Assembly (NCBI RefSeq): GCF_963921235.1 | Contig: NC_086108.1 | Span: 28,150,001-28,214,000 of the forward strand | Reading direction: 5' to 3' | DNA from: Mobula hypostoma | Taxonomy: Eukaryota | Length of the DNA stretch: 64,000 nt | Part shown: one piece after another, positions 393 to 35,230 of the stretch | Layout of the letters: each line of letters opens with the position of its first letter | Numbering within the stretch: position 1 is the first letter of the stretch | The notes under the pieces: generated by a model | Told to the model about the DNA's origin: nothing | The model's input: only the letters and a program-made list of their open reading frames with translations | Database searches by the model: none | Position numbers and translations under genes: made by a program

Positions 393-619
393 AAGAAGTT
401 TATCACTATCATCCTTGTTGTGGTGAATGCTCTACCCTTAATCAATGTCAGACAGGCACTAGAGGAGCTGAACACCATTCAAGATTCAAGATTCAAAAAA
501 ACTTTATTGTCATTCTAACCGTACATCAGCTCTGCAGGGCAGAATGAGACAGCATTTCCCAGGAGCAGTGCAATCATAACATAACAAATGCAACACTAAA
601 TAATAAACACAATAATAAA

Positions 620-2030
620 TAGCAATCACGAAACAGCATACTCTGATGCCTTCTTGATTATTGTGGGGTATTTCAAGGGGTCAGCTTGAAGAATTCTCTG
701 ACCAATTAACACCAACAAGTCAGGTGGAGCCAACACACTTGACCACTGTTACACTGCCATCAGGAGTGCCTACCATGCCATTCCATGCCCGCACTTTGGC
801 AAGTCCATTCACCTGATGTCTATTCCCAGCGTACAAGCAGAGTCTGAGGACTACAGCACCAGTGGTGAGGACCATGAAACTATGGTCAAGGGAAGCAGAG
901 GAACACCTACAGGAAGCTTTGAATCAATGGACTGGAAAATACTCAGGGATTCATCTTCAAATCTGATCGCAGTTTTCGCAGTTGAAAGGGAAGATAAAGA
1001 TACCCCTGTGCGATTGCCTGCAACGTCTGGTAGCGCTGTGATCTCTGTCTCAGAGGCTGACATCTTTCCAGAGGGTGAGCCCTCACGAGGCATCAGGCCG
1101 CGATGGTGTAGGGCTTTGAAAACATATGCCAACCCGTTGTTAAGAGTGTTCAAGGACATCTTCAGTCTCTCACTGCTGTAGTTAGAGATTCCTACCTGCT
1201 TCAAAAGAGCACCAATCATACCATGCCCAAGAAGAGCAGGGTCAGCTGCCTCAGTGGCTATCACCCAGTTGTACTTGTATCTACTGTGACCAAGGTTGGT
1301 CATGGTTAGAATCAACTCCTACCTCAGCAAGGACCTGAACCTGCTGCAATTTGCCTATCACCACAATAGGTCTACAGCGGATATCTTCACACTACCTTGG
1401 ACCACATGGACAATAGCAGTGTCTATATCAGGCTGCTCTTTATTGATTACAGCTCTGTTTCAATGCCATCAACCCTTCCATACTCATCAACAAGCATCAA
1501 ATCCTGGGGACTTCTGTACTTCCCTCTGCAACTGGATCATTAGGAGTTTGAGGACAATTGGTATGCCTCCAAAGGCCCTAACAAATTTCGACACACGGAG
1601 AGAATTCTAACTGTTTGGGTCACTGTCTGGTATGGAGGGGCCACTGCTCGGCCAGCTACGTCATGGGCAATAGCCTCCATAGCATCGAGGGCATCTTCAA
1701 AATGCGATACCTGAAAAAGGCAGCATCCATCATTGAAGACCCCCATCACCCAGGATATGTCCTCTTCTTATTACTGCTGTCAAAGAGGAGATACAGGAGC
1801 CTGAAGATGTACACTCAACATTTTGGGAACAGCTTCTCCCCCTCTACCATCAGATTTCTGATTGAACAATGAACACTACCTCACTATTATTGCTCTCTTT
1901 TTGCACTACTCGTTAAGTTTTGTTCATATATATTTCTTATTGTAATTTATAGTATTTATGCATCACACTGTGTGGCTGTCTCAAGACAAATTTCACCCAG
2001 TACTCTATCTGTCAGTGATATCTGAGCCTG
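620..2030 (+). mobile_element. Degenerate Rex1/Babar-like LINE with internal deletions
   Basis: Endonuclease-end motif TLDHCYTAIRSAYHAIPCPHFGKS near 735-810, RT remnants, and the C-terminal DPHHPG..LF.LL.S.RRYRSL motif (ORF 1615-1872), followed by an AT-rich 3' UTR. Confidence 0.75.
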
Positions 2031-2739
2031 ACAGTAAGGCAACCAGATATGCTGTACATAGCAACTGTCGGCTCAATGAACTTGTGGGATCCTTACTAAA
2101 ACTGTCACCTTCAAAAATTTTTTTAATCATTCAGCTATTATGAACACTGCTAACACACTTCACTGAAAAGTTATTCTAGCCGTTTACTGGTTGGTTATTC
2201 AAATCTTTTGATTGATTTCTGCCTGCTTTTTAGCAAGTTCCCACCAGGTATAGGACATCCCTGGCTAATGATCAACCCAAAATATAATTAAATACAAAAA
2301 CTGTTGTACTGTATGTATCTACATTCATTTCTGTAAATGGCAGAACTAGTTTCCTCCTCTTAGTATAGTTCTTTCTTGTCAATCTTGTGTGTTTTTGATG
2401 ACATTCATTGCAGTATTATCGGAGATGACTTTTATGTATTTTCTGATTTATGGACAAAATCAGTTTATGGATGTCTATGAAAACATAACCTATTTGTTAC
2501 CCTGGGACATCTTGTACTGGAGAAGTCTAAAACCTGAATTTGTTCATTTGTGGCAGAAATATTCCACTCAGGTTTCATGTTGATAGCTCTTTCACACCAA
2601 GCAGGCAAACTCTTGGCTTCTTCTACAAACAAATGGAGTTATAAATCCAAAGGATAAGGCTTTGCACACGATGGATGACTGTCAGTGGGTGCTCAGTGTC
2701 ATGCTCGGAGCCAAAAGGGACTAATGGGTGCTGTACAAC

Positions 2740-2919
2740 AACAGGAATTCTGCAGATGCTGGAAATTCAAGCAACACACATCAAAGTTGCTGGTGAACGC
2801 AGCAGGCCAGGCAGCATCTATAGGAAGAGGCGCAGTCGACGTTTCAGGCCGAGACCCTTCGTCAGGATGAAGATGCTGCCTGGCCTTCTGCGTTCACCAG
2901 CAACTTTGATGTGTGTTGC
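2740..2919 (-). mobile_element. Penelope-derived fold-back mini-element enclosing a hammerhead motif
   Basis: 49-bp inverted repeat (2771-2819 vs 2871-2919, 1 mismatch) around the minus-strand CTGACGA-AGGGTCTCGGCCT-GAAACGTC motif. The left arm carries an extra ~30-nt pLTR tail. Confidence 0.85.
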
Positions 2920-5609
2920 TGTAATGGGTGCTGTAGATAGTTCCTGAAATAATGTCTGCCACACCTTAAATGCATTTAAACCACTGAAAGCAAAACAATT
3001 TATTTTCTTCCTCACTCAGCAGATATCAGTTCTGCTCCTAATCTGCTATGCTAAACAAAGAAACAGTACACACTTGATGTGGAGCAGGGAATCAAAAGCT
3101 GGGCCACATGAAGTGCAGCATTAGGTGTGAGGCAAGACAGGTCAGAAGAGGTTCTACAGTCAGGTAGTATGGGAGCCGAGCAAAGAAAGAGAAAGAAGGA
3201 AATTAGAATTACTGTAAAGTAAAATGCAGAATATTTCAAAGTCTTTTAAGTGTTGTAGTGTAGGTGACACGGCATGGATATAAATTCTTGCAGGAAAGTT
3301 GATTTGACAGAAATATTGCCAGATGTTAACAGACTTGTAAGTCACAGCTTGTTATGAACCTCACTGTTTTAGCTGTTAACGGTTAATTCAGAGTGAAGAC
3401 TCTGGAAGCTTCTGTCTCCTATTAACCACCAAACAAGAGCCTGTGCAACACATTGCTGTCCTCATTTCACTGCCCACGGATGTAATGCTTATGGGAGAAT
3501 TTGTATCACAAAAGAAAAGTGATTCAGAACCAAAGGTTTTTCTAACTGTGTATACAGCATCAACATCAAGCAGAACATAACGATATGGACCCCGGGATGG
3601 CACTTTTTTTACATCAAAAATATTTTGGGCATCAAAGGATAAGGAGAGAAGATAAGAGAATGGGGTTGAGAGGGATAATAAATCAGCCATGATGATTTGG
3701 TGGAGCAGACTTAATGGGCTGAATGGCCCAATTCTGCTCCTATGTCTTATGGTCTTAATTTTTTCATAAAATCTGTGATTGTACATAATATGGAACATTC
3801 ATGTATTGTCACTTCTGGGCAACTTGTATCACTCTTCCTGCATTATGTTAGCATGACATCAGTTCTTTGGACTACTTTCCTTAAGTAAATAATCCAAGGG
3901 GATTGTGTATAAATTCACATTATGTACAAGGTTAACTGCCTTGAACTGAAGCAGCTCTGCTTATTTATCAATAGAAAACTTCTCTGCTCCGATCTTCAGA
4001 GAGGGATATCGTGAAATGTTCAAGGTCAGAATCGATTGGTTTAGAGTAGGAAGCCATGGAGATGTATTTCTACTGCGGGGCTATTTTACAGACTGCCAGT
4101 TAGTGGGAAAGTTATTAAGGAGCAAACCTGCAGGAACGTCATGCATGTGAAAACTGTAAAGTAATGGTAAAGAGGTCTTCAACTCTCCAATTGAGCCTAG
4201 AATTGTATATAATACAAAATGTTCATGCATCACCATTTGCAGGACAGCTTGTGTCACCCACATTATATAACTTTTCATTTACATACCTCAGTTAAACTGT
4301 CAAAAGGGATTTGGTGCAGGTTCCACATGGCATGATACTTATTTATTATTATTATTTCTTCTTTTTCTGTTTGCACAGTTTGTTGTCTTCTGCAGTCTGT
4401 TGTACGGCCTAGTTAGGCAGTCTTTCATTGATTCTGTTATGGTTATTATTCTATAGATTTAGAGTCCACAAAAATGAATCTCAGGCTTGTATATGGTGTT
4501 ATGTATGTAGTTTGGTATTAAATTGACTTTGAACTTTAGTATACAAGGTTCACTGGCGTTGATTGCCACTCTGTCTCTTTTTTTAAAATTCAGTTGTTCT
4601 GAGCGTTCGTAGTCAGCTTGTTTCCACTTGCATCAATAACCTGCTGCCTATTACATGATTCTCTTCTGCTCTGATCTTTTTTTTGGTCGCCAAGTTCTAA
4701 TGTTATTTTCTTTACCATGCTCTGCATAAGAATCATCTTATCACATACCACCACAACTCCTCGATATTTCATTCTGTATATCTCTAGGCTATATTGAATC
4801 TAGAAGTATTGAAGATCACCCTTTCCCCTCTCTTAAGCCAAGTCTTTGTCTTAACACAACATAGTGATCCTGTGCAGCTCAGTAACCTTGTTTAATGTAC
4901 TTCATTCAGATTAAGCACGAAAAATTCAGCGTCTGTTCAGTTCCATATCTTCTATTCAAGGCTTTATCATTTCCCTGCCTCTACTTAGATGTGATCCTAA
5001 TTGATGGTGGCAGTGGATGTGTGAAACTGTTGAGGGCATCAGTCTCTCATTGCTCTGAAGAAGAAGGAATCTAATAGGAAGAAAACAGTCGACCATGGAA
5101 GAAAGAGAGGGACGAAGGGAAGCAGAGGGAGATGATAACTGGGTGATTAGAAGTGAGAGAGAGAGAGAGAGAGAGAATGAATAACCATTCTCAAGGACAA
5201 CTTCTAGCCTACTATCACACAGTTGAATGGTTCCCTTGTACACTTGATGTCACAATCAAGGTAGACTCTTGACTTCAGAACCTATTTCATTCTAATCTTA
5301 CACATTATTGCCTACCTGCCCTGCACTTTCTCTGTAGCTGTTGCACTTTTATTCTGTATTCTGCTACTGTTTTCTCTTGTACTACCTCATTGCACTGTGT
5401 AATGATTTAAACTTCATGAACAGTATGCAAGACAAGCTTTTCAATGAACCTCAGTACATGTGACAATAATAAAACCAATTCCAATTCCAGAATATATATT
5501 TCAGCAGTTACAAAACTATAGTAAAGTGCATGTGAACAAATAAGGTGCAAGGGACATAGCAGATGGATTGGGAGATTAAGAGTTCATCTTTTAGTGTATT
5601 AAAGACTTG

Positions 5610-9196: not shown

Positions 9197-9663
9197 ATCT
9201 ATGAACACTGGTTTCAATTGCTTACAAGCAGACATCTCCTGTAAAACAGTGGATGGCACAATATGAGAATGTATTGACAGTCTGATGACTGGTACAGTCC
9301 TGGATGTCATTGTTAAGATAAAAGTTTGAATTTCGGCCATACCTTCATGTGTGGATGTACAAACTTCAAAGCACAAACTCCATGATACTATGTTGGTAAA
9401 GAGAAGGAAGATAGATGCTCTTGGTTGCCAGTTATTTATCCCTTCAGTGAATATCACCAAAACCACTAGGTCATCAATAAAGTGCTTTTTATGTGATCTT
9501 GCTGTGTGCAAATTAGCTGGCATATTTCCTAAGTAAAATCAACAACTACATAAATTCTGAGTTACTAGTGAATTAATGTTGGACTTCATAGGTGTGGTAC
9601 TGCAGGTTCTTTTGTTGTTAACTCCGAGAAAAAAAAATCATTGCCTTAGTTCTGAGTGCAAAT

Positions 9664-10226
9664 GTGTGTTGTTCGTCCATCGTACGTCGCTGAGGACCTC
9701 GACACCATTATTGATGGTGTCGAGACTAGCGCGTGATTTGGATTTAAGTAAGGGAGAGTTGCGCAGCGTCAGCCTCACTCTCTCTTCCCAATTCCCATCT
9801 GGATCCAGTGGTGAGACAGAGTCGAGACGGCTGGAGATGGGACTAGGCGCAGTGGATGACCAGGGCGTCTTCTCTGTCTTGTCCTGCTCTACATGTTCCA
9901 CGACGCTTGCAGAGACTGCCTTCTTGACCATTGGATCTTCTATTGGTCTCGTCCGCTCCATCCACCGGAGTCTGTCTTCACATGCTGGGATAGACAACTC
10001 CCTATCTCACCGAGGGTTTGAGACCCGTCAGCTACCCTCACCTGGTTTAGCCGGCTTGTTGAAGCCGTTGCCTGGGTGTGGCCGCTGTCGCATGCAAACA
10101 GCTACAGGGAGCCACAGGTGAGAGCTGAGTGCCAGGTGGGGACCAAAGGTGGACTAACCGCCTGGAAAAGGACGCGACATGTTACCCCACCAGAGGTGCT
10201 ACCCCTCCCTGACACCCCATCCACCC
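9664..10226 (-). mobile_element. Non-autonomous retroposon (probably RTE-derived), copy 1
   Basis: 12-bp TSD ctgagtgcaaat (9652-9663 and 10227-10238); short (CAA)n 3' tail on the minus strand; about 93% identical by manual count to 31165-31731; no recognisable RT. Confidence 0.9.
10039..10218 (-). ncRNA. HDV-like ribozyme, degenerate copy
   Basis: Same fold as copy 2, but P1/P1.1 reads ACACCC-A-GGCAA (1-nt loss plus a substitution) and L3 reads UCCCUGU. Confidence 0.6.
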
Positions 10227-10633
10227 CTGAGTGCAAATAATGGCAGCATGTCAACAGACAAGAGGGAGGAGGAAGATAAAACTGCACAGAACCACAGAAT
10301 CCTTGACATTTTGACTAATTTCCACTAGTACTCTGGCAATGTCAAATCAAGGCACATGTTTCTCTGTATTTTTTTCTGAAGTAAAGTGTTATTCCAAGGT
10401 TGCACTGAGAGAGTGATATTCTCTAAATTTCGGAAATGACTTATTTAGACACTTCTGCCTGCAGCATTTTCAGATCTATTGATTGGAATGTTTTGAAGGC
10501 TATTACCTTTTACTGGGAGACTGGAGCTGTGGTAATATGTGACAGTCCCTGAAATTTCCCTCTTAAGTAACTTTTATCAGTGCGTTGGACTGCAAGACAC
10601 TACAGAGGACTGTAAAAACTGCCAAGAGGATCA

Positions 10634-15135: not shown

Positions 15136-16699
15136 AAGATGCATAGATCTTTAATTCTATTTACCGTGTAAGTTTAAACACACATGAACCATACTCCGAC
15201 TCCTGCAGAGGTTAGAAGACTAAAAAAAAATCCTTAAAATAATGTCTGTAAACTCTTTCCCAGGAGACTTGGGATGATATTGTTAATAGAATTAATTGAG
15301 GGAATGAGGAGAGGAGATAATGGGCAAATAACAGGAGTTGGGGGTAGACACAGACGCTGGTAGAAGAGCTGTGTGGATCGCAGAACAGAAGCTGTCAACT
15401 AAGTAGAAAAGACATTTATTGGTGGGAAGGGGGCTTTCCAATACCCAAACGGAAGAATGACATTATAGCATCCAGGGATTTGAAGAAAAGTATCTGGTTG
15501 TATTAACAGGATACTAAATATTTAGGCTTCTACCACTCTGGTTACCATTCTGCTTGAGTAAATCAATGATAATTTATTAGTTGTTTTCAGAAATGAATAA
15601 GAAGTGTAATTTAATCCATTGTAAATACTTTGACAGAGGAAACAACTATTAAAGATCGAAGATTAAGTTTAAAGATTAGCTTTGTCACGTGTACTGTACA
15701 TCAAAACAGAGCAAAATGCATAGTTCTGCAATAAAACAAATCAGCGAGGATTGTCCCGGGCCATCTGAAGTTTCGCCCTTCTGGCATCAATATAGCGTGC
15801 CCACAACTCAATAATAACCTTAACTGCACATCTTTGAAGTGTGAGAGGAGTCCAGAGGAACCAGAAAGAAACCCACATGGTCACATGGACAATGTATGAG
15901 CTCCTTACAGACACTGGAAGGAATCAAACCCCATTCGTTCAGCTGGCACTTTATAGAGCCATTATGCTACCATGCCACATGTACCTAAGAAGTTCTTTTT
16001 CATTAGAAAGGTAGCACAGCTGGGAACCTGTAGTCTGACATTTCTGTACTATACGGGAACTTTAGGGTGTCCCAGCATAGTTGCAGCAAGCTTCCTCACA
16101 AATGGAGGTTGGAGTTTGGATGGAATTGGTTGGAAGTTTTGCTCAAACTAGTTGGATAGCTATGTCGAGAGGAGTTGATTAGCCTCTCTTATTTGAGATA
16201 ACAATAACCAAGCAGTAAGAGTTAAGTGAAGAAACATTGCTCAGAAAATTGACATTGTAACAGAACATGTTTATGTAACCCCCATCTCCCTGCTCCTCAG
16301 CCTTGAAAATCCAGTCCTCATGCTAAGCCAAGCATGAAAGTCTCTTTCAGTGGAACCAAAGAGCTGAGTATGTGTACAACTAAGCCACAATTAGAACAGC
16401 AGAAAGGCTTTGAATAAGGAGACTTACAAATTGCAGAAATGAGAGCAGCTGCTAGTCTATTTTTAAAACAGGAAGAAGTTTGGTTAGAAGTTAAAATTGC
16501 GAAGTAGTTAGGAATGGTATTTGTCGTGAAGGAAAATTCAGTTCTCATCTTATTTTTGGGTGGTTTAAAGTCCCAAAAATTGAAAAGCTGAGTTTTTTTC
16601 CTGCCCTGGTGCTTGTTACAAACATGTCCGAGGCCACTGATGTAGTTTACCGTCTACATTCAGTCTCCACGACTGAGACTTCATCTGTTTTGTTTTCCT

Positions 16700-17790
16700 T
16701 CATCGGAACTGGAAAGGAAGGAGGCAGAAGCCAGAAAAAGAATGTGTAGAGAGGGGAAGAAGTGCAAACAGGCAGGTGATAAGTGAGACCAGGTGGTAGG
16801 GGTGTGGGGGCGGGGGGGAACGCAGAATGAAGTCAGAAACTAGGTGGGGTAGGTGGAAGAGGTTGAAGAGGAATCTAAAAGGAGAGGACTGTGGACCATG
16901 GAAGAAAGGGAAAGAGGAGGGGAACTAGAAAGAGATGATGGACAGGTGAGGGAAAGACAAGGGGTGAGTGGGTAACTAGAATAGGGAATGGAAAAACAGA
17001 GGAGGAAGGGGGAGAAATTATTAGAAGTTAGAGAAATTGATGTACATACCATTTAGATCACAAGCTACCCAGACAGAATATGAGGTGTTAGGTCCTCCAA
17101 CCAGAGTTTTGCCTCAGCTTGGCAGTAAGGGAGACCACAGACATGTCAGAATGGGAATAGGAAGCTACATTGAAATGTGTAACCACCAGGAGATCCTATC
17201 CTTTAAAGCACACAGAGCATATGTGTGTGATGAAGTCGGTGGCCTCCTCTACTACCGCAAAGAGGCCAAACTTAAGTTGGAGGAGCAACACCTCATATTC
17301 TGTCTGGGTAGCTTACACTCTAGTTGCATAAGCATTGATTTCTCAAACTTCTGGTAATTACTCCCCCAACCCCATTTTCTGCTTTTTCATTCCCCGTTCA
17401 AGTTACCCTCTCTACCGTTCTTTTCTCCTTACCTGCCCATCACCTTCCTCTGGTTCCTTTCCTCCTTTCCTTTCTTCCATGGTCTACTGTCATCTCCTAT
17501 TAGATTCCTTCTTCAACCTCTTCTACCTATTCCCTCCCAGCTTCTCACTTTCTGCCACCACCAACCTTTTCTCACACCGGGACTCACCTATCACCTTCCA
17601 GTTTATACACCTTACCCAACTTTGTTCCAGCTTCTGCCCCCTTCCTTTCCAGTCCTGATGAAGAGTCTCAGTCCAAACCTTCAACTGTTTATTTCCTTCC
17701 AAGGATGCTGCATGACTTGCTGAGTTCCTCAAGCAATTTGTGTGTGTTGCCTCAAGTTTTCCAGTATCTGCAGAATCTCTTGTGTTTCTG
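16700..17790. mobile_element. Old Penelope-like element with inverted arrangement (minus arm ~16700-17220, plus arm ~17240-17790)
   Basis: LKLEEQHLIFCLGSL on the + strand, a purine-rich mirror arm on the left, and a decayed hammerhead agtcctgatgaagagtc at ~17651. Confidence 0.75.
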
Positions 17791-18950
17791 TCTTGTTTTA
17801 GGGAATTCCTCCACATTAAGAACTGGTTCCATTTCTAACCATGTCCATAAACCCATTTTGTCCATAATGTGAAAATTTAAAAAAAATCAATATGGTAACC
17901 ATACCTCTAAAGTATTGTAAGGAATAGTGTTGATAAGGCTAGTTAACATGAATAATTATTTATTGTCTTCTCCTGCCTCGTTACAATGGCACAGAATCAG
18001 GATGTGCCCCACACTCACTGGCTGGTTTTGATGGGTTTAAGTTTCAATGGATGTTACATTGTTTAACTAAGTATCAATAGAAACCAGTACCTGTCAATTT
18101 CCAAAACAACTCTGTAGAGTTACATCCTGTGGTGAAACTGGCAGCCTATCTACTTAAGAAACAATTATGCCTGAATACTGCAGGGTGATTACATGTGGAC
18201 AAATCTCTCCCCTCCAAGATAACTATTAGTTTTAATTTAATTTTAATAATATCTATGGGAACTTAATCATATATATAGGATGACTATGCGTTGGGTGGAG
18301 GTCCCATAAATTCTAACCCAAATATCAAGTGAAGGACAATCACTTGCACTGTACACTGTACACTGTCCAACAAACTCCTTAAAAGATGAACAGCTTTGAT
18401 TGGACATGGAGCATCCAAGCACATGGCTGTCCTCAGTAAGTTTATGGATTCCACATCAACACTCAAAAGAATGTTTCAGTTCCCAAGTACTTTCAGATAT
18501 CTTGAAGTGAAAAGGTATTCTACAAGTAAACTTTTCAACAGTTCCATATATATCAAGCATGAAAGGCTAACTGCTCATGTATGTTTATCTAGGCATCTGC
18601 AGTTTATTGGAGTGCTTTAATAAGTGCTTTTGCAATTCATTATGTTTGTTTTGGTCCTTTCAACCAATATTGAGCAGGTGGTTCAATCAATTATCAGTCA
18701 AATTATTTAACCACTACTTTCCCTAAAGGCTCAAGAGTTATGATTTCAGACCTGCGATTTTAAGGGTGACTGTGTATCTGCTTTATTCGTATTAAGAATT
18801 CAGATTAATTTCCGTTTCCTTTGGCAATTAATCAATTATCACATGAGTTGAATCAAAGTCAGAATCAGCCTGCCACCAACACACCATAGCATTAGTTTCA
18901 TTCACCTACCAAGTCATTATCTCTACTGTCAGTAAGGTGGCCCTCAAATT

Positions 18951-21360
18951 AGAGTCATAGAGCATTACAGCACAGAAACATGTCCTTTGGCCCATCTAAT
19001 CAATGCCAAACTATTATTCAGCCTAGTCCCATTGACCTCCACCCAGTTCATAGCTCTCCATACCCCTGCTATCCATGTATCTATCCGAATTTCTCTTAAA
19101 TGTTGAAATCAAACCTATATCCACCACTTCTGCTGGCAGCTAATTCCACACTCTCACCACCCATTGAGTGAAGAAGTTCCACCTCGTTCCTGTTAAACTG
19201 TTCACTTTTCAACCTTAACTCATGGACCTCTAGCTGTAGTCTCACCAACTTCAGTGGAAAAAGTCTGCTTGCATTTACCTTATCTATACACATCATAATT
19301 TTGTGTACTATATCAAATCTTCCCTCTTCCTCCTATGCTTAAGGAATAAAGTCCTAAACTATTCAACTTTTGTCTATACTCAAAACCTCAAGTCCTGGCA
19401 ACATCCTTGTAAATTTTCTTTGCACTCTGTCAATCTTATTGACATCCTTCCTGTAGGTAGGTGACCAAAATTGCGCACAATAATCCAAATTAGGCCTCAC
19501 CAACGTCTTGTACAACTTCAACATAATATCTCAACTCTTGTACTCAATACTTTGATTTATGGAGGACAATATGCCAAAATCTCTCCTTATGACCCTATCT
19601 ACCAGTGACTCCACTTTCACGGAATTATGGATCTGTATTCACAGATTCCTCTATTCACCATACTCCTCAGTGTACTGCTCACTGGTAAAGTCTTGCCCTG
19701 GTTTGCTCTCCCAAAATCCAACACTTTGCACAGCAGCATTAAATTTCACCTGCCATTTTTCAGCCCATTTCACCAACTGGTCCAGATCCCACTGGAAGCT
19801 TTGATAGTCTTCCTCACTGTCCAATACACCCCCATCTTAGTATCTTCTGCAAATTTGCTGATCCAGTTTACCACATTATCATTCCAGATCATTGATATAG
19901 ATGACAAACAACACAGATCCAGCACTAATTCCTGTGGCACACCACAAGTAACACACCTCCAGTCAGAGAGGCAACCACTACCACCACACTCTGGCTTCTG
20001 CTGCGAACCCTATATCTAATCCAATATACTATCTTGCTTCGAATGCCAAGCGACTGAATTTTCATGACCAACCTCCCATACATGACCTTGTCAAAGGGCG
20101 TGCTAAATTCCATGTAGACACCATCTACTGCCTTGTCTTCATCTGCTTTCTTGGTAACTTCCTCAGAACTCTATAATATTGGTTAGACACTACCTGCTAT
20201 GCACAAAGCCAGGTTGACTGTACCTAATCAGCCCCTGTCTATCTAAATACTTATATACCTGGATTATTAGAATACTTTTCAATAACTTACCCACTGCTGA
20301 AGTCAGGCTCTCTAGCCTATAATTTCCTGGTTTAATCAGAAGAAAATTAGCTAATCTCCAATCCTCTGGCACATCACCTGTGGTTAAAGACATTTAAAAT
20401 ATTTCTGCTAGGGTCCCTGAAATTTCTGCACTAGCCTCCCACAGGAACTGAGGGAAGAACTCATCAGACTTCGAAGATTTATCCAGCCTAATGTGCCTCA
20501 AGACAGCAAACACCTCCTCCTCTGTAATTGTATGTGGTCCATGACCTCACTGCTGCTTTGCCTCACTTCTATAGACTCTGTCTGTCTCCAGAGTAAATAC
20601 AGATGCAAAAAATTCATTTATGATCTGCCCTATCTCTTTTGTCTCCATGCATAGTTGACCACTCCGATCTTCCAGAGGACCAATTTTGTCCCTTGGTATC
20701 CTTTTCCTCTTAATATAGGAACTTGTAGAAACACTTGGGATTCTCCCTCACCTTGTCTGCCTCAGCAATCTCGTGCCTTCTTTTAGCCCACCTGATTTCC
20801 TTTTTAAGTGATCTCCTGCATCTCTAATACTCCACAAATATCTCATTTGCTCCTTCCTGCCTATAACTGCTATGCACATCTTTCTTCTTCTTAACCAGGG
20901 CCTCAATATCTCTTGAAAACCAACTTTCACGAAACCTGTTATCCTTGCCTTTTATTCTGACAATTATGATCATTAGGTGCAAAGAGTTCCCCCGCACAAA
21001 CTTCTGTCACCTGCCCTCCCTCATTCCCTAATAGGAGGTCTAGAATCACACTCTCTCCAGTTACAACTTCCGTATACTGATTAAGGAAACTTTCCTGAAC
21101 GACTGTAATAAACTCTATCCCATCCAGCTTTTTTACAATTTGGGACTCTCAGTCATATGTGGAAAGCTAAAATCATCTACTGTCACAACTTTATGTTTCT
21201 TGTAAAAATCTGCGATCTCTCTGAACATTTCCTCTGCTAAATCCCATGGACTGCTGGGTGGTCTATAATGCAATTCCATTAAAATGGTCATCCTTTTCTT
21301 ATTCCCCAGTTCCACCATATAGCTTCAGTAGATGAGCTCTCCAGTCTGACCTGTCTGAAC
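18951..21360 (-). mobile_element. Old, internally deleted CR1 LINE
   Basis: Fragmentary ORFs YRPPSS (APE), VPEDWR, GNYR..SLTSAVGK and FDKV; CR1 3' UTR at the left end. Confidence 0.85.
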
Positions 21361-22488
21361 ATAATTGTCAGGGTTATTTCAGTTAGGTTGAATGAGAAAC
21401 AAGGAGAATTTCTGTCTGAGAAGTACTTATTTTGCTGGGCTTTTTTTTAGTGTCAGATACAATAATGTTTCAGTTTGTGCAATGGTTATTGGAGATAAAA
21501 TCTAAACTGTACTGTCTTCAGTCATCTGTACTTGTATTGTAAAGGCACTGATATGCTCAGTGGGAATGAGTGATTAAACCAAGTTAAAATGTCACACATC
21601 CAGGCCAATGCATCTAAAACAACCAAGCAATTAAAGACAGAGAGTCACTGATTTCAAAGTTTAAATTTTATAAAAAGGGATTGAGGAATTAAGGCTTTAC
21701 TTAACTTCAGCATGACTCCAATAGACTGAGTAGAATTAATGTTAGATGCAGATTATTCTAGTGGCTAATGCCTCATTGTCACGTTGCATCTTGTCATTGT
21801 AACTGATGGGTGTTTCTGAGTCACGTTCCATGTTGCAATGCAATGCATCCACAAACAAATGATTTATTAATTCTTGTAAGTTCCCTTTTGTTGACCTAAG
21901 CATGCCTCGGATTTGTTGACAATTCTATTTTTAAACAGCTGGAAGACGTTTTATTACTTTTCCTGTTAATCACTTGATAAAAGTTGTACAGATAGCATGT
22001 TTGTAATTGAAGATAGAAAGAAGGCTGGGTGATGTCAGCAAGACTTCTGTCACATCATGTTTATAAGGCAGCTTCAGGAAATGGCCAGACCCACTGGGCT
22101 AGAAACAATAAGGAGGGAAATTGGGATTAGAGTGATTATGATAAACCCTGGAAATAATGCAATTTTTTTCCTGTTGCTTTCCTATTTTTATTTTAAGTCC
22201 ATAATTAATTTGTTTATTTTATTTGCAGATTTGCTCAATGCCTTTCTTGCATTTTATTTTTGCTTTAGTTCTTTCTGAATTTTGGTTTCATTGGAATATT
22301 CAAGACTGATCGCATGGTGACCAGGTTACCAGACTCATAGTCGTAGATCTAGATCCCCTGAGCTGGAAACTGAAGTTGAACTACAACATCACAACTGGGG
22401 AATTTGTTCATAAACTTTCCTGTCATACGTGTATTTTCTGATATCTATCAGGAAATCTGTTATAATCAGGCTTATTATCGTTGACATA

Positions 22489-23007
22489 TACCCAGTGGCC
22501 ATGTTATTAGGAACCTCCTGTACCAAATAAAGTGACCATTGAGCGCATGTTCATGGTCTTCTGCTGCCGTAGTCCATCCACTTCAAGGTTCAACATGTTG
22601 TGCATTCAGAGATGCTCTTCTGTACACCACTGTTGGAACATGTGATTATTTGAATTACTGTCACCTTCCAATCAGCTTGAACCAGTCTGACCTCTCTCAT
22701 TAACAAGGCATTTTTCTCACAAAACTGCAGCTCACTGGATGTTTTTTTCCCTGTTTTTTTGCATCATTTTTTGTAAACTATAGGAATTGATGTGTATGAA
22801 AATCCCAGCGGTTTCTGAGTTACTTAAACCACCCATTCTGTCACCAACAATCATTCCACGGTTAAAGTCACTTAGATCTCATTTCTGATGTTTGGTCTGA
22901 ACACCAAGTGAACCTCTTGACCATGTCTACATGCTCTTGTGCATTGAGTTGCGGCCACGATTGGCCGGTTAGATGTTTGCATTAATGAACAGGTGTACAG
23001 GCGTACC
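22489..23007 (-). mobile_element. Tc1-derived non-autonomous transposon, one TIR lost
   Basis: Starts with TIR-like cccagtggccatgttattagg; homologous to 45593-46130. Confidence 0.8.
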
Positions 23008-23229
23008 ATGACATTCCACTGTATGCATGTCATGAAAGTTGTTGTTTTTTCGTCAGTAGTACAGTGCAAGACAAAAGATTCTGTAAGTTACTAATTCTAA
23101 AGTAGTGCAGAAGCGGAATAGTGAGGTAACTAACATTCATAGAGCATTCAGAAATCTGATAGCACAAAAGAGGAAACAGATCCTAAAACATTGAGTGTGG
23201 GTCTTCGTGTACCAATATTTTAGACTCTT

Positions 23230-24110
23230 AGGACACAAGAGATTCTTCAGATGCTGGAAAAGTAGACCAACACACACAAACTGCTGGAGCAATTCAGCAA
23301 GTTAGGCAGCTTCAATGGAGGGTCAAAACTTTTCATCAGGACTGGAAAGGAAGGGGACAAAAGCCAAAAAAAGAAATGAAGGAGGGGAAGGAGTACAGAT
23401 TAGTAGGTGAAACCAGTTGAGGAGTAAAGGTGGGTGGATGAGAGAGGGGGAATGATGTGAGAAGCTGTAAGGTGATCGGTGGAAGAGGTAAAGGGCTAAA
23501 GAAGAGGGAACCTGATAGGAGAGGACAGTGGACCATGAAACAAAGAGAGGAAGATGGAGAACCAGAGTGAGGTGATGAGCAGGTGAGTCGAAGAGAATGG
23601 GTGAGAGGGGTATGAAAAATGAGAGAAGGAGAGAGGGGAAGAAATTACTGGAAGTTAGATTGGAGGCCACTCAGATGGAAAAGGAGATTTTGCACCTCCA
23701 TCCTGAGTTTGATCTCATCTTGGCAGTAGAAGAGGCCATAAACAGACATGACAGAATGGGAATGGTAGGTCAAATTGAATTGTGTAACCACCAGGAGGGC
23801 CTGACTTTTGTAGTCAACAGAGTGGAGGTGCTGAACAAGGCCATCCTCTAATCTGCATCTGTTTTATCGATGTAGAAGAGGTCATATTAGGAACATACAT
23901 ACAATAGATGACACTGACAGATTTACAGGTGAGGAGTCACCTCAGTGGGAAGAGTTGTTTGGGGTCCAGAATGCTGGTGAGGGGCAGATGGAGCACTTTT
24001 GATGTGTGAGGAGGGAGTTGAATGGGGAGGGATAAGTGGACATGGAAAGCCGAGGGTTAGGGACAGGGAAGGATGTACTTAGTGGTAGGATCCTGATGGA
24101 GATAGCAGAA
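23230..24110 (-). mobile_element. Old Penelope-like element 3' part
   Basis: pLTR start (acacaagagattcttcagatgctgg), a purine-rich tract, and a decayed endonuclease region homologous to 13112-13995. Confidence 0.75.
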
Positions 24111-24869
24111 ATTACGGAGCATTTTGTTTGTGTTAGACTGTCAGGAAATGTCTTTCTTATCTGCCCTCTCTATTAATGGAGCAATTAACAATGGCTGCTC
24201 AATGCTGATACACGAAACTAGATGCCTGAGTCTGGAACAAGACGGAGGAGCTCAGTGGGTCGAGGAGCATTTGTGTGGGAGGTAAGGAGTTACTGATGTC
24301 TTGGATTCCAATGCAAGGTTTAGACCTGAAACATTGACAATTCCTTTCTGCCCACAGACGCTGCTCGGCACGCTGAATTACTCCAGCAGAATTTTTGTTG
24401 CCTCAGCCTTTGCTGACTTTACCAGTAATGTCCGCATAATATGAGTGAATTATAAAATAACAAAATGTGCTGTCACGGCCAGAGTTTGGCACTTTCTTTT
24501 CAGAAAATAATGGGTTAGGTAGCTGGGTCACAACTGTGAAATTGGGTTTCAAACACATTTTGAAAGCTACTTAAAAATTAACCCAAAATATTGGCTGTGG
24601 TGTTGGTGTGAAGATCTAATAAAACCTCTCTATCATTACCTGTTCTGAACTAGCACAAGTAGTGGAATTTCTCACTGCAGCAGTAAGGATGGGTCCAATA
24701 TTGGTCTTTGAGCATGCGTGAAATTACCGCATAATTACAGCACAAGATGTGTACGATGCACTTTCGGTCAACATCTTCTAGATAGATCATGAAACCATAT
24801 ATTTCACTTCTTTTATGTCTTTTACATTTGGTTTTCATCTTGAATGTGATTCTGGAACTGTTGGAGCCT

Positions 24870-25602
24870 ATGATTTGCTGTTTGAAGATCGTTTGGGTAT
24901 TGCAGCGCTCTGTAGTCTCTGAAACGTTTCTGGGAGGTGGAAATGGCGATCAGAGGCAAACTGCTGGACATTATACGGGCATACTTTTTGACTCCATTTT
25001 GCCGAGGTAAATACAGAAGTTTGGACATCGTTTTGGTGTTTCAGTGCTCTGCAGTCTCTGCGAAGATTCCGGAAGGCAGAAATAGTGTACGTGAACCTCG
25101 TGGTGAGAAGAGAAGGCTGCAGGACGGGGCATGAGCTGTGTTCATGGCGATTTTGCTGATTAAAGCTTCCATTCTCCAATCAAAGCGACGAGGGAGAGGG
25201 AAGCATTGAGACAAATGTGGAAGGTGAGCGCCGATCACTGGGGATTGCACTGTGACTTGAGAGGGGACAGCTTGCCACTATGCCCAGAGAATGTTACCCA
25301 GGTTTTCTGTATTTTAGATATGGACTTGGAATATAAACTTTTTTTCAGTTTTTTTTTATATTACGTGTTTTTCACTGAATCTTTCAAGTTTTTTTTGGGT
25401 GAGGTTTTGGGGGACTTGGGGGCTGATGTGCCTGTTTCATTTTTGCTCGTACTTTTCTGTGGGGAGGGGGGATTTGGGGGTTGATGGTCACGCTGCTGTT
25501 TTTTTTCTTTCTCGGTTTTGCAGCTATCTGGAGAAGAAGAATTTCAGAGTTGTACACTTCGATAATAAATGAACCTTTGAACGTTTGAATCTTGAACCTT
25601 TG
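24870..25602 (+). mobile_element. Non-coding retroposon with Rex1-like 3' tail
   Basis: Ends gataataaatgaacctttgaacgtttgaatcttgaacctttga; diverged internal repeat (~24881-24946 vs ~25021-25086). The 5' boundary is uncertain. Confidence 0.55.
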
Positions 25603-26387
25603 AGCCATATTCTTGTTCATCATAATTCAATCTTCTCAAAAAGTGTGATGTTATCACTGTAATATTGTCTTGATGATTGTGTTATAAGTATTACAGTGAT
25701 AACATCATACTTCTTGAAAAGATTGAAAAATAGACTGTTAAGAAATAGGATTCTATTTTATATTTGAATTCCTTGATCATTTGAGTAGTTTTGGACATTT
25801 CCTCTAGTCTAAATGGTGGTGCCCAAACCTTGCAGAGACTCTGTCCCAGTACAGTGCCCTTCCCACTGTGGTAGCTTTGCTGAGAGAGTGAATCCACTGA
25901 CTTCCCTTTTGTTGAAAGCCTTTCTATTGAAGTAGATTTGATCGCAGACAGCGGTTTCATTTCCTTCAGATAAACCCAGCTGATTCTTCTCAGAAGTTTG
26001 TTAATGGTCTTTCTGTTCACTGAGTTTAAAGGAAGGGTGGTAATTTTCGAGCCATGGACTCAGCAAGACAGAGACAAGGAACTGGCATTTCTGAGGTTGC
26101 GAAAAGAGTAGTTTTCTCAGGATAAAATGTTATCCATATAAGGAGCAAAAGGCCAATTGCACAGATTAAAATCAGTAATAGTAGTGCAGTTCATAGACAG
26201 CTCCGTTGACCCAGGTTTGATCCCAACGCTGTGTGTGTAGTTTGCATGTTCTCCTTGTGATCATGTGGATTTCCTCTGGCTACTCTGGTTTCCTCCCACA
26301 CGCCGAAAATGTGCATACGATAGATTAATTGACCCCTCATGTTAGAGCTGTATTTTTCGAGAACCTGGTGGGAACTGAACCTCCTGG

Positions 26388-29116: not shown

Positions 29117-31164
29117 CTCTGTTGCACCTTTGTTTGAATTCACATGCAGTTGCATTATATTCATGATTAGCTAGCAGTTCCTCCAGCATGAAATGATCTG
29201 GTACAGAAGATTGGTGACAGACATTGAGATAACAATAGAAAGTCTGGAGTGCCTTGGTTGAGACAGATCAAAGTAGCTAAGGCAAACTAGAAGCAGGCAA
29301 GGATACCTAGAGAATCGCAGATGCACCAGAAGCTGTGAAGAGGCCAGTATTCGTGACTTGAGATGATGTGGAATGTCTGTAACTTCAGCTGCCTGTACTT
29401 TTGGGTGGGGCTACTGGAGAATGTTACCTCAGTAAGTAACTGCAGTACATCGGCTACATCAGAAATGGCTGAAATCAGGATAATTGTCCATTCTAAAATG
29501 ATAAGAAGTGACTAAAGATTGAAGTTTACAAAGCCTGTGAACTTGATGGTTGGAAACCTTTCTTGGTGCTCATTCGTTGCAGTATGGCTTTCTAGAAAGT
29601 GGAAAGTTGACTCAATGTCAATAATATGAGCATCATCTATATTGGGAGCAAGTGTAACACCATGAATGATGCTCAGTCTCATCATCAGGACTGTTAAATG
29701 GTGGGAGGTGTTACCATTCTAAAAGGAATTGTATCAATATCTTATTCTTGTAGAGTCATGGAGTCAAACAGAGGTTAGAGATGGGCTGTTCAGCACACTG
29801 AGTCCACACCAACTGTCCACCAGCCATTTACACTAACCTTCTTGTATTCTTCCCACATTTCCGTCAGCTCACTGACACACCAGGACAATCACATTGGCTA
29901 GTTAACCTGCCTTGTCTTTAGGATGTGGGGAGATAACAGAGAAAGCTAAATTAGACACAGGGAGAACGAGCGAACTCCACACGGACAGTGCCACTTTCAG
30001 ATTTCAAGAATAACAGAGCATACTTTGTGTTGTTCTATTATCGCTCCCTAACTTGGTAAAGGCAACTGAGGATTGTTTTAGGCCCTGTAACTGACCTGTG
30101 TTCCCAGATCTGCTTAAGTTATGTTTTCTTTTCCCTTATGAATGTTGCTGATCTGATGCTATGTACCTGCGATGTTGCTGCATGTAAGCTTTTTACATTG
30201 CAGCTGTGCATACATCCAGTAGGCTTGTGCATATGATAATAAAGTCAAGTTTGAGAGGAAAATGAGATGTGTTGGAAGTCATTTCATGTCATAATGCCAA
30301 TGAGCAGAAGGACGGTGTGCTCTTGAAGATAGTTTTCGAACAGATGGTCCATTTCTGGGACACTCTGTGCTAGGCTGGTGCCTATACAGGTTACAGTAGT
30401 AAGTGCCCAACCTCTTTAAAAAAACACCTTGCTCAAATAGTCAGAGCTCAGCTCGAAATGACTGAGAACTCAATTTTTATCCATTATTAAGTTACTCAAC
30501 AACTAGTAGTGCTGGCAGGTCTCGGGAGGCAGTATGTGAAGTTTATGATGCAGGAACAGGCCAGTTGGTCCATGCCCATAGATATGCTCTACATAGAGTA
30601 GCAAAATTTAAAGAGCCATTACCTCACAGTACTAGAGACCCACAAAATCGAGCACTGTCTGTATAGAGTTTCTCGCAATGACTCAGGGTACTCTGAGTTC
30701 CTCCTACATTCCAAGGACATGTAAATTGTTTGGTTAGAATTGGCAACTGTAATTAATCTTAGTGTGTAGGAGTTAGTAAAAGTGGGTGGTTAATGTTAAG
30801 CATGAACTCAGTGAGGCAAAGCCCCTACTTCCAAGTTATCTCTCTCCATGGCTCTAACACTACCTCCCATTCTACCAGCTAGAATCCTGTCCACATAGTT
30901 TTCTTCCTTTCTCCCTCAAATGTTCGTAATTCCTCTTAAATATAACTTTGCCCTTTACCAGAACCTCTCTAGTGAGGATAGAAACTGGATAATTTGGCAA
31001 ATAAATACGTGGCCAAGAAGATTGTGCGGGGGGCAGGGCTTCAGGTTCTTGAATCATTGGGATCTCTTCTTTGGGAGATATGACTTGTTCAAAAGTACTG
31101 ATTGCACCTGAACCCGAGGGGGACCAATATTCTTGCGGACAATTTTGTTAGAGTTGTTTAAACT

Positions 31165-31731
31165 GTTGTTGTTGTTCGTCCATCGTACGTCGATGAGGAC
31201 CTCGACACCATTATTGATGGTGTCGAGACTAGCGCGTGACTTGGATTTCAGTGAGGGAGGGTTGCGCAGTGTCAACCTCACTCTCTCTTCCCAATTCCCA
31301 TCTGGATACAGTGGCAAGACAGAGTCGAGACGGCCGGAAATGGGACTAGGTGCAGTGGATTACCAGGACGTATTCTGTGTCTTGTCCTGCTCTACACGTT
31401 CCACGACACTTTCAGAGACCGCCTTCTTGACCGTTGGACCTTCCATTGGTCTCGTCCGCTCAATCCTCCGGAGTCTGTCTTCACATGCTGGGATAGACAA
31501 CTCCCCATCTCACCAAGGGTTTGAGACCCGTCGGCTACCCTCACCTGGTTTAGCCGGCTTGTCGAAGCCGTTGCCCGGGGTGTGGCCGCTGTCGCATGCA
31601 AACAGCTACGGGGAGCCACAGGTGAGAGCTGAGTGCCAGGAGGGGACCAAAGGTGGACTAACTGCCTTAAAAAGGACGCGACATGTTACCCCACCAGAGG
31701 TGCTACCCCTCCCTGACACCCCATACAGCCC
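31165..31731 (-). mobile_element. Non-autonomous retroposon (probably RTE-derived), copy 2
   Basis: 10-bp TSD tgtttaaact (31155-31164 and 31732-31741); (CAA)n tail; removing it restores continuous CR1 sequence. Confidence 0.92.
31540..31722 (-). ncRNA. HDV-like (nested double pseudoknot) self-cleaving ribozyme, apparently intact
   Basis: Minus-strand RNA: P1 GGGGUGU (31722-31716) / ACACCCC (31583-31577); P2 CUCACCUG / CAGGUGAG; P3 GGC/GCC; L3 UCCCCGU plus an insert; P1.1 CC/GG followed by GCAA; P4 CGGCUU-cgac-AAGCCG; J4/2 GCUAA with the putative catalytic C at 31553. Confidence 0.8.
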
Positions 31732-32919
31732 TGTTTAAACTAATGTGGCGGGGGATGGGAACCAGAGTGAAGGGACTCAGGATAGGACGGAGGGTTAAAA
31801 AAAAAGCAAAGGTAGCATGCAGTCAGACTGTCAGGAAGGACAGGCAATTGATAGGAGAAAATTGCAGCCAGCAGGGTGAATATCAGTGTATTAAGGATGC
31901 AGAATCAAAAAGGGTAGCAAATCCAGTACTCAAAGTGTTTTATCTCAATGCACGGAATAGAAGAAATAAGGTGGATGACCTTGTACTTTTACAGATTGTC
32001 GGGTGTGATTCATCACTGAATCATAGCTGAAGGATGGTTGTGGTTGAGAGCAAAATGTCCGAGGTTTCATATTGTATTGGAGGGATAGGAAGATAGGCAG
32101 AGGGCGTGGCGTAGCTGTGCTGATAAAGAAAAGCATCAAATCATTCGAAAAATGTGACAGTATATGAATGATTTAAATGATGGAATAGATGGCTTTGTTG
32201 CCAAGTTTGCAGCTGATATGAAGATTGGTGGACGGGCAGGTAGGGTTGATGAAACAGGAAGGCTTCAGAAGGACTTAGACAGATTAGGAGAATGGGTGAG
32301 AATGGTAAATGAAATACAATGTCATTCACTTTGGTCGTAGAAATAAATGTTCAGATTTCTATACTGGGAGAAAATCCAAAAATCTGAGATGCAAAGGGAC
32401 TTTGGAGTACTTGTGCAGGACACGCTAAAGGTTAAATTGCAGGTTGAGTCGGTGGAGAGGAAGGCAAATGCCATGTTAGCACTCACTTCAAGAGGTCTAG
32501 TATACAAGAGCAGGGATGTGATGCTGAGGCTTTATAAGGCACTGGTGAGGCCTCACCTTGAGTATTCTGAACAGTTTTGGACTCCTTATCTAAGAAAAGA
32601 TGTGCTGGCATTGGAGAGGGTTCAGAGGAGGTTCCAGGAATTAAAGGGTTATCATATGAGGAACATTTGATGGCTCTGGGCCGATACCTGATGGAATTTA
32701 GATGGATGAGGGGGGTATCTCATTGAAACCTTTTGAATTTTGAAAGGCCTAGACAAAGTAGATGTGGAAAGGATGTGGGAGTCTAGGACAAGAGAGCAGT
32801 TTAAATGGCACTGGTGAGGCATGGCAACTTCTTATTGGTAGCATACAAAACAACGAAACTACTAACTACTTTACTAATCACACTTTTTCTCCAATACGGT
32901 TACTGCAATCAATAGCCTA

Positions 32920-33653: not shown

Positions 33654-35230
33654 TGTTGTAATGTGAGCATTATTAAAAATAAGTTAATACTAATTAGGAT
33701 AATGGGGGGGGGGGGTTCACTTCTGTTCTTTTACTTCTGGTGTGCTTTTGTATGTAGTGTTCCTGCCGCGCCGTATGGGTTGTGAAAGCCTCTGTATATA
33801 TATCACGGGTATGACGTTCGAGATAAAGTTGTTTCTTTGGCATGAAGTTGTCAAGCGTGCCTTTTTCAAAGTAGAAGATACTACATATTTTTGGCGACGA
33901 GGTGAACTGGTTTTGTGGACGTGTCAGCACGTTTCGAATGGGAGCAGCAGCGCCAATAAGGGGTTCAGATGGCTACGTTTGGGACTATCGTTGAATTTGT
34001 GGAGTTAACGGAGGACTGGCCGGAGTATGAGGAAAGGTTGGGAAACTTTTTCTGTGGTAATGGAATTACTGAGGAGGTAAAGAAGCACTCTATTCTCCTG
34101 AGTGTGTGTGGGGCGAAGACTTACAAGCTAATAAGGAATTTAGCCACACCACGGAAACCGGGGGATATTCCTTATGACGAACTGGTCAAGCTCGTGGGGA
34201 ACCACTACAATCCGAAACCTTCTGAGATAGCCCAACGGTGTAAGTTTCACAGCCGTTTCAGGAAGACAAGTCAGTCTGTGGCCACTTTTGTGGCCGAGCT
34301 TCGGCAGTTGTTAGAGCATTATAGCATATAACCATATAACAATTACAGCACGGAAAGAGGCCATTTCAGCCCTTCTAGTCCATGCAGAGCTCTTACTTTC
34401 ACCTAGTCCCACCGATCTGCACTCAGCCCATAATCCTCCATTCCTTTCCTGTCCACGTATCTATCCAATTGTTAAGCTGACTGATGGGCGTGTTTTCCGC
34501 AGACATCAGGACCATGTGCGTCTGCGTCATGATACCGGCTCAGAGGCAGACAGTTCCATGGATTTTTCCATTTGTGAGACAGACTACGGTGGAAGCATGT
34601 CCACCAGTGACTTTGCCAGAGGGAAAGACACTGGCAGAGGGGTCGGGGTCCCCTGAAGAAGATGGACATTCTCACGCAGACACACAGACCCCTCTCAAGC
34701 CCCCAATACCAGACCCACCCAAAACACCATCACCAGCGGTGCCTGCTGGGTCACTGGGGGTAGTGCGCAGATCACAGCACACTCGTAAACCTCCTGACAG
34801 ACTGAATCTTTGACGAGACAGTTTTTTTTGTTGTTGTTGGATTGAATGTTGAATCTGTCATGCTTTCCAGATGTTTTGTATTGGTAAACTGTTGCTGAGA
34901 TACTAGTATAAGATTTCAGGGGTACACAAGTTAATAACACCACTGTTCTTATTTCCTAGTTTTTTACATTTCGGGAATGTTGGATTTTAAAGGGGGAGAA
35001 GTGTTGTAATGTGAGCACTATTAAAAGTAAGTTAATACTAATTAGGATAATGAGCGGGGTTTCTTTTCCGTTCTTTTACTTCCGGTGTGCTTTTGTATAT
35101 AGTGTTCCTGCCATGCCGTACGGGTTGTAAAAGCCTCTGTATATACATAACGGTTTTGACGTTCGAGATAAAGTTGTTTCTTTGGCACGAAGTTGTCGAG
35201 TGTTCCTTTTTCAAAGTAGAAGTTACTACA
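33654..35230 (+). mobile_element. Internally deleted Gypsy (Mag-clade-like) LTR retrotransposon
   Basis: LTRs 33654-33885 and 35002-35230 (TGTTGTA...TACTACA); 5-bp TSD AGAAG; PBS TGGCGACGAGG at 33892; PPT aaagggggagaag. Gag N-terminus at 33969-34323 (EDWPEYEERL...TYKLIRNL...HYNPKPSEI); pol C-terminus remnants (GRVFRRHQDHVR; RRSQHTRKPPDRLNL). Confidence 0.95.

Follow-up and report, generated by a model that had tools for sequence, protein, structure and literature searches.

This work concerns a repeated element of about 560 nt, here called family A, that occurs twice in the window, a stretch of 64,000 nucleotides from Mobula hypostoma (NCBI RefSeq assembly GCF_963921235.1, contig NC_086108.1, positions 28,150,001 to 28,214,000 of the forward strand). 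Family A is probably a young, high-copy, non-autonomous retroposon of the type that lacks long terminal repeats (non-LTR), with a hepatitis delta virus (HDV)-like ribozyme head inherited from the 5' end of a lineage of RTE-type long interspersed nuclear elements (LINEs). For the cap by itself, the sequence comparisons give a high probability that it is an HDV-like ribozyme inherited from RTE-type LINEs. A first-pass annotation of the window had proposed a ribozyme-capped retroposon and knew of no description of it in cartilaginous fish. None of the families treated herein is described in the literature searched, which did not extend to Repbase or Dfam, so that a prior description is possible.

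Copies, Boundaries, and Age of Family A

The two window copies are about 565 nt long, lie on the minus strand, and are 94% identical to each other. Each is flanked by its own target-site duplication (TSD), as the first-pass annotation had seen; that of copy 1 is CTGAGTGCAAAT (plus strand; 9652-9663 and 10227-10238), and that of copy 2 is listed in Table 1. The (CAA)n tail ascribed to both copies is present in copy 2 as a short tail of this type, but the tail of copy 1 is shorter and degenerate (..GAACAACACAC). Contigs of another species bridge the flanks of copy 2 over the insert (joints 31159->31735 and similar). Since these contigs join the flanks without the insert, they confirm the boundaries of copy 2 and place the element inside an older repeat. 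This host repeat (window 31100-31160 and 31750-31800) is far more abundant, with an other-species contig depth of 16,000-26,000 in the flanks. Element positions (p) are given herein as 31732 minus the window coordinate.

A first-look search of the window's own assembly (3.48 Gb, 200 contigs) returned 3391 family A candidates, and the 40 of them that were scored are full length and 95-96% identical. With at most three mismatches, a 48-nt core of family A matched the assembly 3171 times, compared with 0 matches for the reversed control. When exact core matches were fetched, the family A element was found in 20/20, with a start within the first 9 nt of the element in 18/20. The median divergence of the copies from the majority sequence is 2.51%, and 1.65% at non-CpG sites (n=48), a low value that marks the family as young. 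Two subfamilies differ solely at p44, 65, 405, 492, 517, and 545; as none of these positions lies in the core, family A alone provides no covariation signal. Words resembling family A are also present in sequencing runs of ten organism labels from 13 studies.

Layout of the Head and 5' End of the Element

All the helix strands listed by the first-pass annotation for an HDV topology are present in the stated order, but its assignments of P1 with G1 and of L3 do not hold. The 5' end of the family A majority reads GGGGTGTAT GGGGTGT, and the TSD-defined end is the first G of the first heptamer. Of the 51 copies surveyed for their 5' ends, 36 are flanked by perfectly matching TSDs of 7 nt or more. 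In these, the base that follows the TSD is p1 in nine copies, p2 in eight (an ambiguous G), p-2 to p0 in seven, p3-10 in six, and farther upstream in the remaining six; 17/36 thus begin at p1 or p2. With the TSD-defined end at the first heptamer, P1 is most simply formed by nt 1-7, which gives seven Watson-Crick pairs in family A and places the predicted G1 at 31731 rather than at 31722. The second heptamer, where G1 had been sought, forms the base of the J1/2 rod in the fold of minimum energy.

L3 had been read as UCCCCGU. There are 21 further nt between this motif and P3' GCC, so that L3 comprises 28 nt and includes a 5-bp hairpin. The loop thereby departs from the characteristic length of 7-8 nt; the conserved U...G and the two C are nonetheless present. 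Copy 2 carries a G4->C change in P1 and copy 1 carries five changes in the core (Table 1); both window copies would serve poorly as templates in cleavage assays.

The number of 5' nonamers GGGGTGTAT varies among the copies, with three in locus L010 and two plus TAT in L005, and the copy at L042 begins exactly at the second heptamer. Template slippage or an alternative use of P1 may underlie both observations.

Table 1. Location of the family A copies, the parts of the predicted ribozyme head, and the related families. Window coordinates unless a locus is given; L numbers denote loci.
Feature	Location	Strand	Remarks
Family A element, copy 2	31165-31731	-	567 nt; bounds backed by TSDs and other-species contigs
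5' TSD copy of copy 2, AGTTTAAACA	31732-31741	-	
3' TSD copy of copy 2, AGTTTAAACA	31155-31164	-	
HDV-like ribozyme head (predicted), p1-194	31538-31731	-	
P1 5' strand, p1-7	31725-31731	-	Family majority GGGGUGU, copy 2 GGGCUGU; the element begins with G1, the predicted cleavage site
J1/2 rod (P1.2), p11-101	31631-31721	-	Minimum-energy folds and six compensated A/B pairs; includes heptamer 31716-31722
P2 5' strand, p104-113	31619-31628	-	
P3 5' strand GGC, p115-117	31615-31617	-	
L3, p118-145	31587-31614	-	28 nt, begins UCCCCG; C119 and C120 in P1.1; hairpin p126-130/140-144 in the family-A-specific insert
P3' GCC (p146-148), directly followed by P1' ACACCCC (p149-155)	31577-31586	-	
P1.1 3' strand GG, p156-157	31575-31576	-	Unchanged in families A, B, and C
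P4 hairpin, p162-177	31555-31570	-	6 bp, loop CGAC
J4/2 GCUAAAC, p178-184	31548-31554	-	Candidate catalytic C at 31553; identical in A, B, and C majorities
P2 3' strand, p185-194	31538-31547	-	
3' module	31165-31227	-	11-bp stem-loop, second stem-loop, GAAC(AAC)n tail
Family A element, copy 1	9664-10226	-	Core damaged: U7G, C122U, C152 deleted, G156A, G169A
Family B long element	L060 + L071 (G000:C12:47420678-47427200)		RTE-like LINE of ~3.35 kb with homologous head
Family B short forms	L051-L053, L061-L069		
Family C heads	L075:186-372, L076-L089		15 heads; copies 78-84% like L075

Homologous Heads on RTE-like LINEs

Two further families carry related heads. Family B came to light through a pattern made of J4/2 and P2' that bars the family A continuation; this exclusion pattern gave about 1430 matches versus 64 for the control. 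Of 15 family B loci, 12 are short forms of ~466 nt ending in (AAG)n, while three run into a long element. The latter spans ~3.35 kb, with Exo_endo_phos and RVT_1 domains in the pieces of a frameshifted open reading frame and a stop codon ~45 nt ahead of its (GCAAG)n end. The short form, B-short, consists of about 385 nt of the 5' end and about 75 nt of the 3' end of the long element, and the last ~60 nt of the latter match the short-form tail at 84%; a 3' end common with an autonomous LINE is therefore found for B-short (versus L071). The shared head and the matching tail identify B-short as an internally deleted derivative of the RTE-like LINE. Its copies show a median divergence of 4.9% from their majority. 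The 5' ends of family B fall at p1-3 in 3/7 copies and within 3 nt in 7/7.

Searches with the LINE proteins uncovered a second identity class, with 60-70% identity in the reverse transcriptase (RT) and about 50-56% in the endonuclease. One of the family C heads lies upstream of an endonuclease ~55% identical to that of family B. The family C head is 75% like the family B head and represents a third, apparently older lineage. The L072 RT, which belongs to the 60-70% class, has (ATAA)n at its end. On these sequence grounds, the link of the cap to RTE-like LINEs is real, homologous heads being located at the 5' end of ~3.3-kb LINEs with endonuclease and RT.

Five loci matching G[C/T]GAAACCAGGTGAGGGGG (L054-L058) were considered for family C and rejected. 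They belong to an abundant unrelated repeat (window repeat families D13 and D20), whose GAAACCAGGTGAGGGGG resembles J4/2 plus P2' and produces spurious matches in pattern searches.

In another organism, the summed contig depth is 10,000-46,000 over window 31532-31651 (p81-200) versus 65-4,800 over the remaining element. The excess over the core fits a head common to several families, contig depth being a poor measure.

Comparative Evidence for the Fold

Majority bases, drawn from 48 copies of family A, 13 of family B, and 15 of family C, were compared by means of family-specific coordinates. Because MAFFT alignments of A versus B misplace P2 and P3 by 2-3 columns, pairs in P2, P3, and P1.1 were counted by the family-specific script only. 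Compensated pairs among the three lineages number one in P1, two in P2, one in P3, one in P4, and six in the rod, and thus occur in every helix but the 2-bp P1.1 (Table 2). In all three majorities, P1.1 (CC with GG), the L3 motif UCC..G, and J4/2 are invariant, and the candidate catalytic C of J4/2 is kept in 14/15 family C copies. Of the helices whose conservation or covariation the first-pass annotation had named as a check on the fold, P1, P2, and P3 show compensation and P1.1 does not vary across the three lineages. Within family A, the P3 pairs are intact in 46-48/48 copies and those of P1.1 in 45-48/48.

Table 2. Majority bases of families A, B, and C at compensated core pairs, and length of L3.
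Pair or feature	Family A	Family B	Family C
P1 pair 6/150	G-C	A-U	G-C
P2 pair 111/187	C-G	G-C	G-C (G decayed at CpG in 9/15 copies)
P2 pair 113/185	G-C	G-C	C-G (11/15 copies)
P3 middle pair	G-C	G-C	C-G (14/15 copies)
P4 pair 163/176	G-C	C-G	C-G
L3 length	28 nt	7 nt (UCCAAGC)	7 nt (UCCAAGU)

When A is compared with B over 28 core pairs, 23 are unchanged, three are compensated, one is changed on one side (U-A to U.G), and one loop-closing pair is lost. J1/2 is poorly conserved in sequence, and it folds into a long rod in both families (-43.1 kcal/mol in A, -38.3 in B). RNAalifold, applied to six family A and seven family B heads, predicts P1 and the rod, the latter with six compensated pairs. A formal count over the 31 pairs of P1, rod, and P4 gave 96.5% paired cells, versus 88.6% for shuffles and 39-53% for slid controls; nine pairs are changed on both sides, compared with 1-3 in the slid controls.

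Contigs of four other organism labels were also compared with the element at 80% likeness, and the listed core differences were examined individually. These changes affect loops (C168U, A170G, C121A/C122A) or are compatible with G.U pairing (A173G, C144U, the latter converting a G-C pair of the L3 hairpin into G.U). A C176G change accompanies G163C, a flip of the P4 pair, in a noisy consensus. An RNA sequencing contig of a relative spans p55-223; such contigs cannot show RNA ends or transcription.

To bound the contribution of chance, a relaxed HDV descriptor was written with a 7-bp P1 starting with G, a J1/2 of up to 150 nt, a P2 of at least 6 bp, a 3-bp P3 abutting P1', an L3 of 6-40 nt, a 2-bp P1.1, a P4 hairpin, and a J4/2 with C-N-R-A. 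The descriptor detects family A, in which the nested double pseudoknot is present in the order P1-P2-P3-L3-P3'-P1'-P1.1-P4-J4/2-P2'. Applied to 20,000 dinucleotide-shuffled versions of the first 260 nt, it matched 0 times with P1 starting in the first 12 nt and six times with P1 anywhere. Both strands of 663,890 genomic bases yielded 53 matches, all in sense and located in 35/53 element segments matched by BLAST (one per copy in nearly all cases), with 0 matches outside element copies. As the descriptor was written after the element had been seen, these statistics bound chance and do not prove function. A chance origin of the fold is excluded.

It is correspondingly very improbable that the resemblance to HDV is fortuitous and that the head is a structured 5' untranslated region that serves RTE LINEs in, for instance, protein binding or translation and cleaves in no family. 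The lack of Rfam membership of families A, B, and C would suit this explanation. It is opposed by the descriptor statistics, by the covariation of the pseudoknot helices P1, P2, and P3 together with catalytic-core strands that never change, and by an element 5' end placed exactly at the first base of P1. A review, moreover, already records HDV-like ribozymes in RTEs, as well as their use by some non-autonomous short interspersed nuclear elements (SINEs) (PMC6765202).

Class of the Element

Family A has the features of a non-autonomous non-LTR retroposon, namely TSDs, a 3' repeat tail, and no coding capacity. The absence of a recognizable protein, noted in the first-pass annotation, agrees with the lack of a Pfam match in 3/3 long stop-free frames. 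The description as SINE-like without a tRNA head was likewise upheld: ARAGORN called 0 tRNA genes in family A, and Rfam scans over 901 nt returned nothing at E<=10, including no tRNA, 7SL, or 5S. A classical SINE transcribed by RNA polymerase III from an unrecognized small-RNA head would also be short, non-coding, and present in high copy number. This origin is scarcely credible in view of the tRNA, 7SL, and 5S results, of a TTTT run at p58-61 that speaks against transcription by this polymerase, and of the homology of the head to a LINE 5' end.

The 3' Module, the Insertion Site, and the Search for the Copying LINE

The first-pass annotation had also proposed that an RTE-type LINE copies the element. 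The homology of the cap to RTE-like LINE heads bears out the connection for the cap; a LINE with the family A 3' tail was not found. A BLAST search with the tail over about 332 kb of genomic sequence matched family A copies only and no LINE. Several candidates were rejected. Matches of the first exclusion pattern for the tail were mostly the reverse reading of the palindromic stem-loop, and stem-loop 2 without stem-loop 1 yielded nine matches, all of them family A deletion variants. The segment p455-475 with a non-A base upstream gave 85 matches, some of them unrelated repeats and the others family A copies that are 5'-truncated or show (AG)n slippage. The L072 RT was discarded for its (ATAA)n end, which is not the family A tail, as was L048, which diverges after p319 and has no LINE downstream. 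A frame of family A showed no similarity to the LINE C-terminus (BLASTP E 3.6).

At the insertion sites of family A, T occupies position -1 in 27/34 and A position 0 in 28/34; the corresponding values for B-short are 7/7 and 6/7. This T|A boundary is compatible with related endonucleases and not specific to them. A T stretch about 10 nt upstream is described as an insertion signature of RTE elements (PMC6007223). In family A, T is only modestly raised at -16 to -13 (61/136), and this comparison is not decisive.

Further observations concern individual copies and their surroundings. In 4/20 randomly fetched copies (L035, L040, L041, and L045), the loop of the first 3' stem-loop carries an insert of ~150 nt at about p517. 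The insert, seen for example at L041:6500-6700 (minus strand), contains a B-box-like word, GGTTCCCGAGTTCAAATCC, and neither ARAGORN nor Rfam called a tRNA in it. A normal tail follows the insert, which implies that the composite subfamily was itself mobile. At L034:6620-7770, a ~1.1-kb stretch holds a head-to-tail pair of family A copies, the upstream copy being truncated at p523. The copy at L048:7200-7511 (+) stops at p319; beside it, the opposite strand carries an RT fragment unrelated to it. The surroundings of window copy 2 are repeat-rich. An open frame at window 32347-32670 (+) resembles, by eye, a C-terminal fragment of a LINE RT, and another at 33960-34331 (+) a retroelement Gag.

Does the Head of Family A Cleave?

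Several observations weigh against an active, LINE-derived ribozyme in family A. The only match of its core to an HDV-type Rfam family is to RF02682 (13.2 bits and E 1.8, with the gathering score at 44). For family B, neither the head nor the core yielded an HDV-type match, nor did three heads of family C, the families tested at gathering score being RF00094, RF01787, RF01788, RF02682, and others. With J1/2 domains of ~100 nt, heads of this kind are missed by current Rfam models. The cleavage-site pair, a G.U wobble in the HDV and CPEB3 ribozymes, is G1-C in all three families. The L3 of family A has four times the 7 nt seen in B and C, and its hairpin has, to our knowledge, no counterpart in this position among HDV-like ribozymes, no search having been made for one. 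The covariation derives from three paralogous lineages of one genome, with few independent events per helix. Lastly, three genome-wide exclusion patterns disclosed no LINE with the family A tail among the matches listed; as these were the matches inspected, a rare or diverged LINE partner could still exist.

Part of this evidence would also be expected if the family A head were HDV-like by descent and had been rendered catalytically dead or very slow by the 21-nt insert in L3, which only family A possesses. The uniform 5' end would then be set by other processing or by an internal RNA polymerase II promoter with a fixed +1, as for Pr77 in L1Tc; a dual promoter/ribozyme 5' end is known in L1Tc and NARTc (PMC3383444), and family A has no Rfam membership to set against a loss of activity. 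We nevertheless regard such a loss as unlikely. Family A is the younger of the two dated families (A and B; C is undated) and very prolific, and its majority core helices, P1.1, and J4/2 are intact. Furthermore, the L3 hairpin tolerates the change from G-C to G.U in another species, and unusual spacing in L3 has been reported for an R2 ribozyme that is active (PMC3774820).

A cleaving head inherited from RTE-type LINEs, which we prefer for these reasons, suggests a further and more tentative step. The HDV-like head might be a portable SINE head, which in family A was joined to a foreign 3' module, acquired the L3 hairpin, and still cleaves. This is possible, and we lean slightly against it.

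Proposed Mechanism and Significance

In the mechanism that we propose, family A, having no RNA polymerase III head, would be read through from neighboring RNA polymerase II promoters. The head of the transcript would fold with P1 formed by nt 1-7 and with the ~90-nt J1/2 rod pinching P1 against the 10-bp P2. P3, P1.1, and P4 would form the remainder of the core, with the putative catalytic C in J4/2, and the head would cut directly 5' of G1. The freed RNA may then be copied by a LINE RT from the 3' stem-loops and the (CAA)n tail through target-primed reverse transcription. New copies would therefore begin at G1 and be flanked by TSDs of 7-20 bp.

The retrotransposons with 5' ends defined by HDV-like ribozymes would gain a large and young vertebrate family and its relatives among LINEs. 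For studies of structure and function, the three families also provide one predicted ribozyme in three forms that diverged in nature, among them a form with an unusual L3 hairpin. Host read-through transcripts could be cut by thousands of genomic copies, provided that the heads are active. Should the head of family A indeed be portable, the family would represent a recently active vertebrate SINE headed by a ribozyme, with about 3,000 potential self-cleavage sites in host transcripts, and a natural example of an L3/P3 junction that tolerates an extra helix.

Comparison with Known Systems

In the HDV genomic ribozyme, L3 begins with U-C-C-N-C-G, P1' is followed by GG GCAA, and J4/2 contains C-N-R-A. 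Family A shares these three features and the order of the helices. It differs in the first pair of P1, which is G1-C instead of G.U, in a J1/2 of about 96 nt, and in the 21-nt insert in L3.

Closer relatives may be found among LINE-borne ribozymes. Ruminski et al. (2011) reportedly found that LINEs of the RTE clade carry HDV-like ribozymes at their 5' ends, the drz-Agam-2 group of mosquitoes being an example. Like these, the heads described here lie at the extreme 5' end of a promoter-less LINE with endonuclease and RT, combine a 7-bp P1, a large structured J1/2 (P1.2) with short linkers, and a P2 extended to 10 bp, and have a predicted cleavage site at the first base of the element. In drz-Agam-2-1, this peripheral design with a P1.2 rod, a 7-bp P1, short linkers, and an extended P2 accelerates the reaction (PMC4908430). 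Unlike the mosquito group, the present heads reside in a genome of vertebrate size and have no sequence-level match in Rfam, and family A is non-coding, with a different 3' module and a 28-nt L3.

Non-autonomous elements with ribozymes also have precedents. The short internally deleted elements (SIDEs) of Drosophila R2 are internally deleted derivatives that keep the ribozyme (PMC3414825), and they resemble B-short in retaining the 5' ribozyme and the 3' end of the LINE. R2 and its SIDEs insert site-specifically in 28S ribosomal DNA and are co-transcribed with ribosomal RNA, while the present elements are scattered and have T|A at the target boundary; in addition, the 3' module of family A, unlike that of the SIDEs, matches no LINE found here. 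NARTc and RIME are further precedents for deleted derivatives that keep the ribozyme (PMC4035085). Together with SIDER, they share with family A a short, non-autonomous, and high-copy constitution and a ribozyme-bearing 5' hallmark in common with their LINE, L1Tc (PMC3383444, PMC4035085). The trypanosomatid ribozymes of the L1Tc type differ in being compact (77 nt), in doubling as a promoter, in belonging to the ingi/L1Tc clade, and in the poly(A) tails of their elements. Family A is thus a new and well-supported example of a known ribozyme-cap strategy, made unusual by its L3 hairpin and its orphan 3' module.

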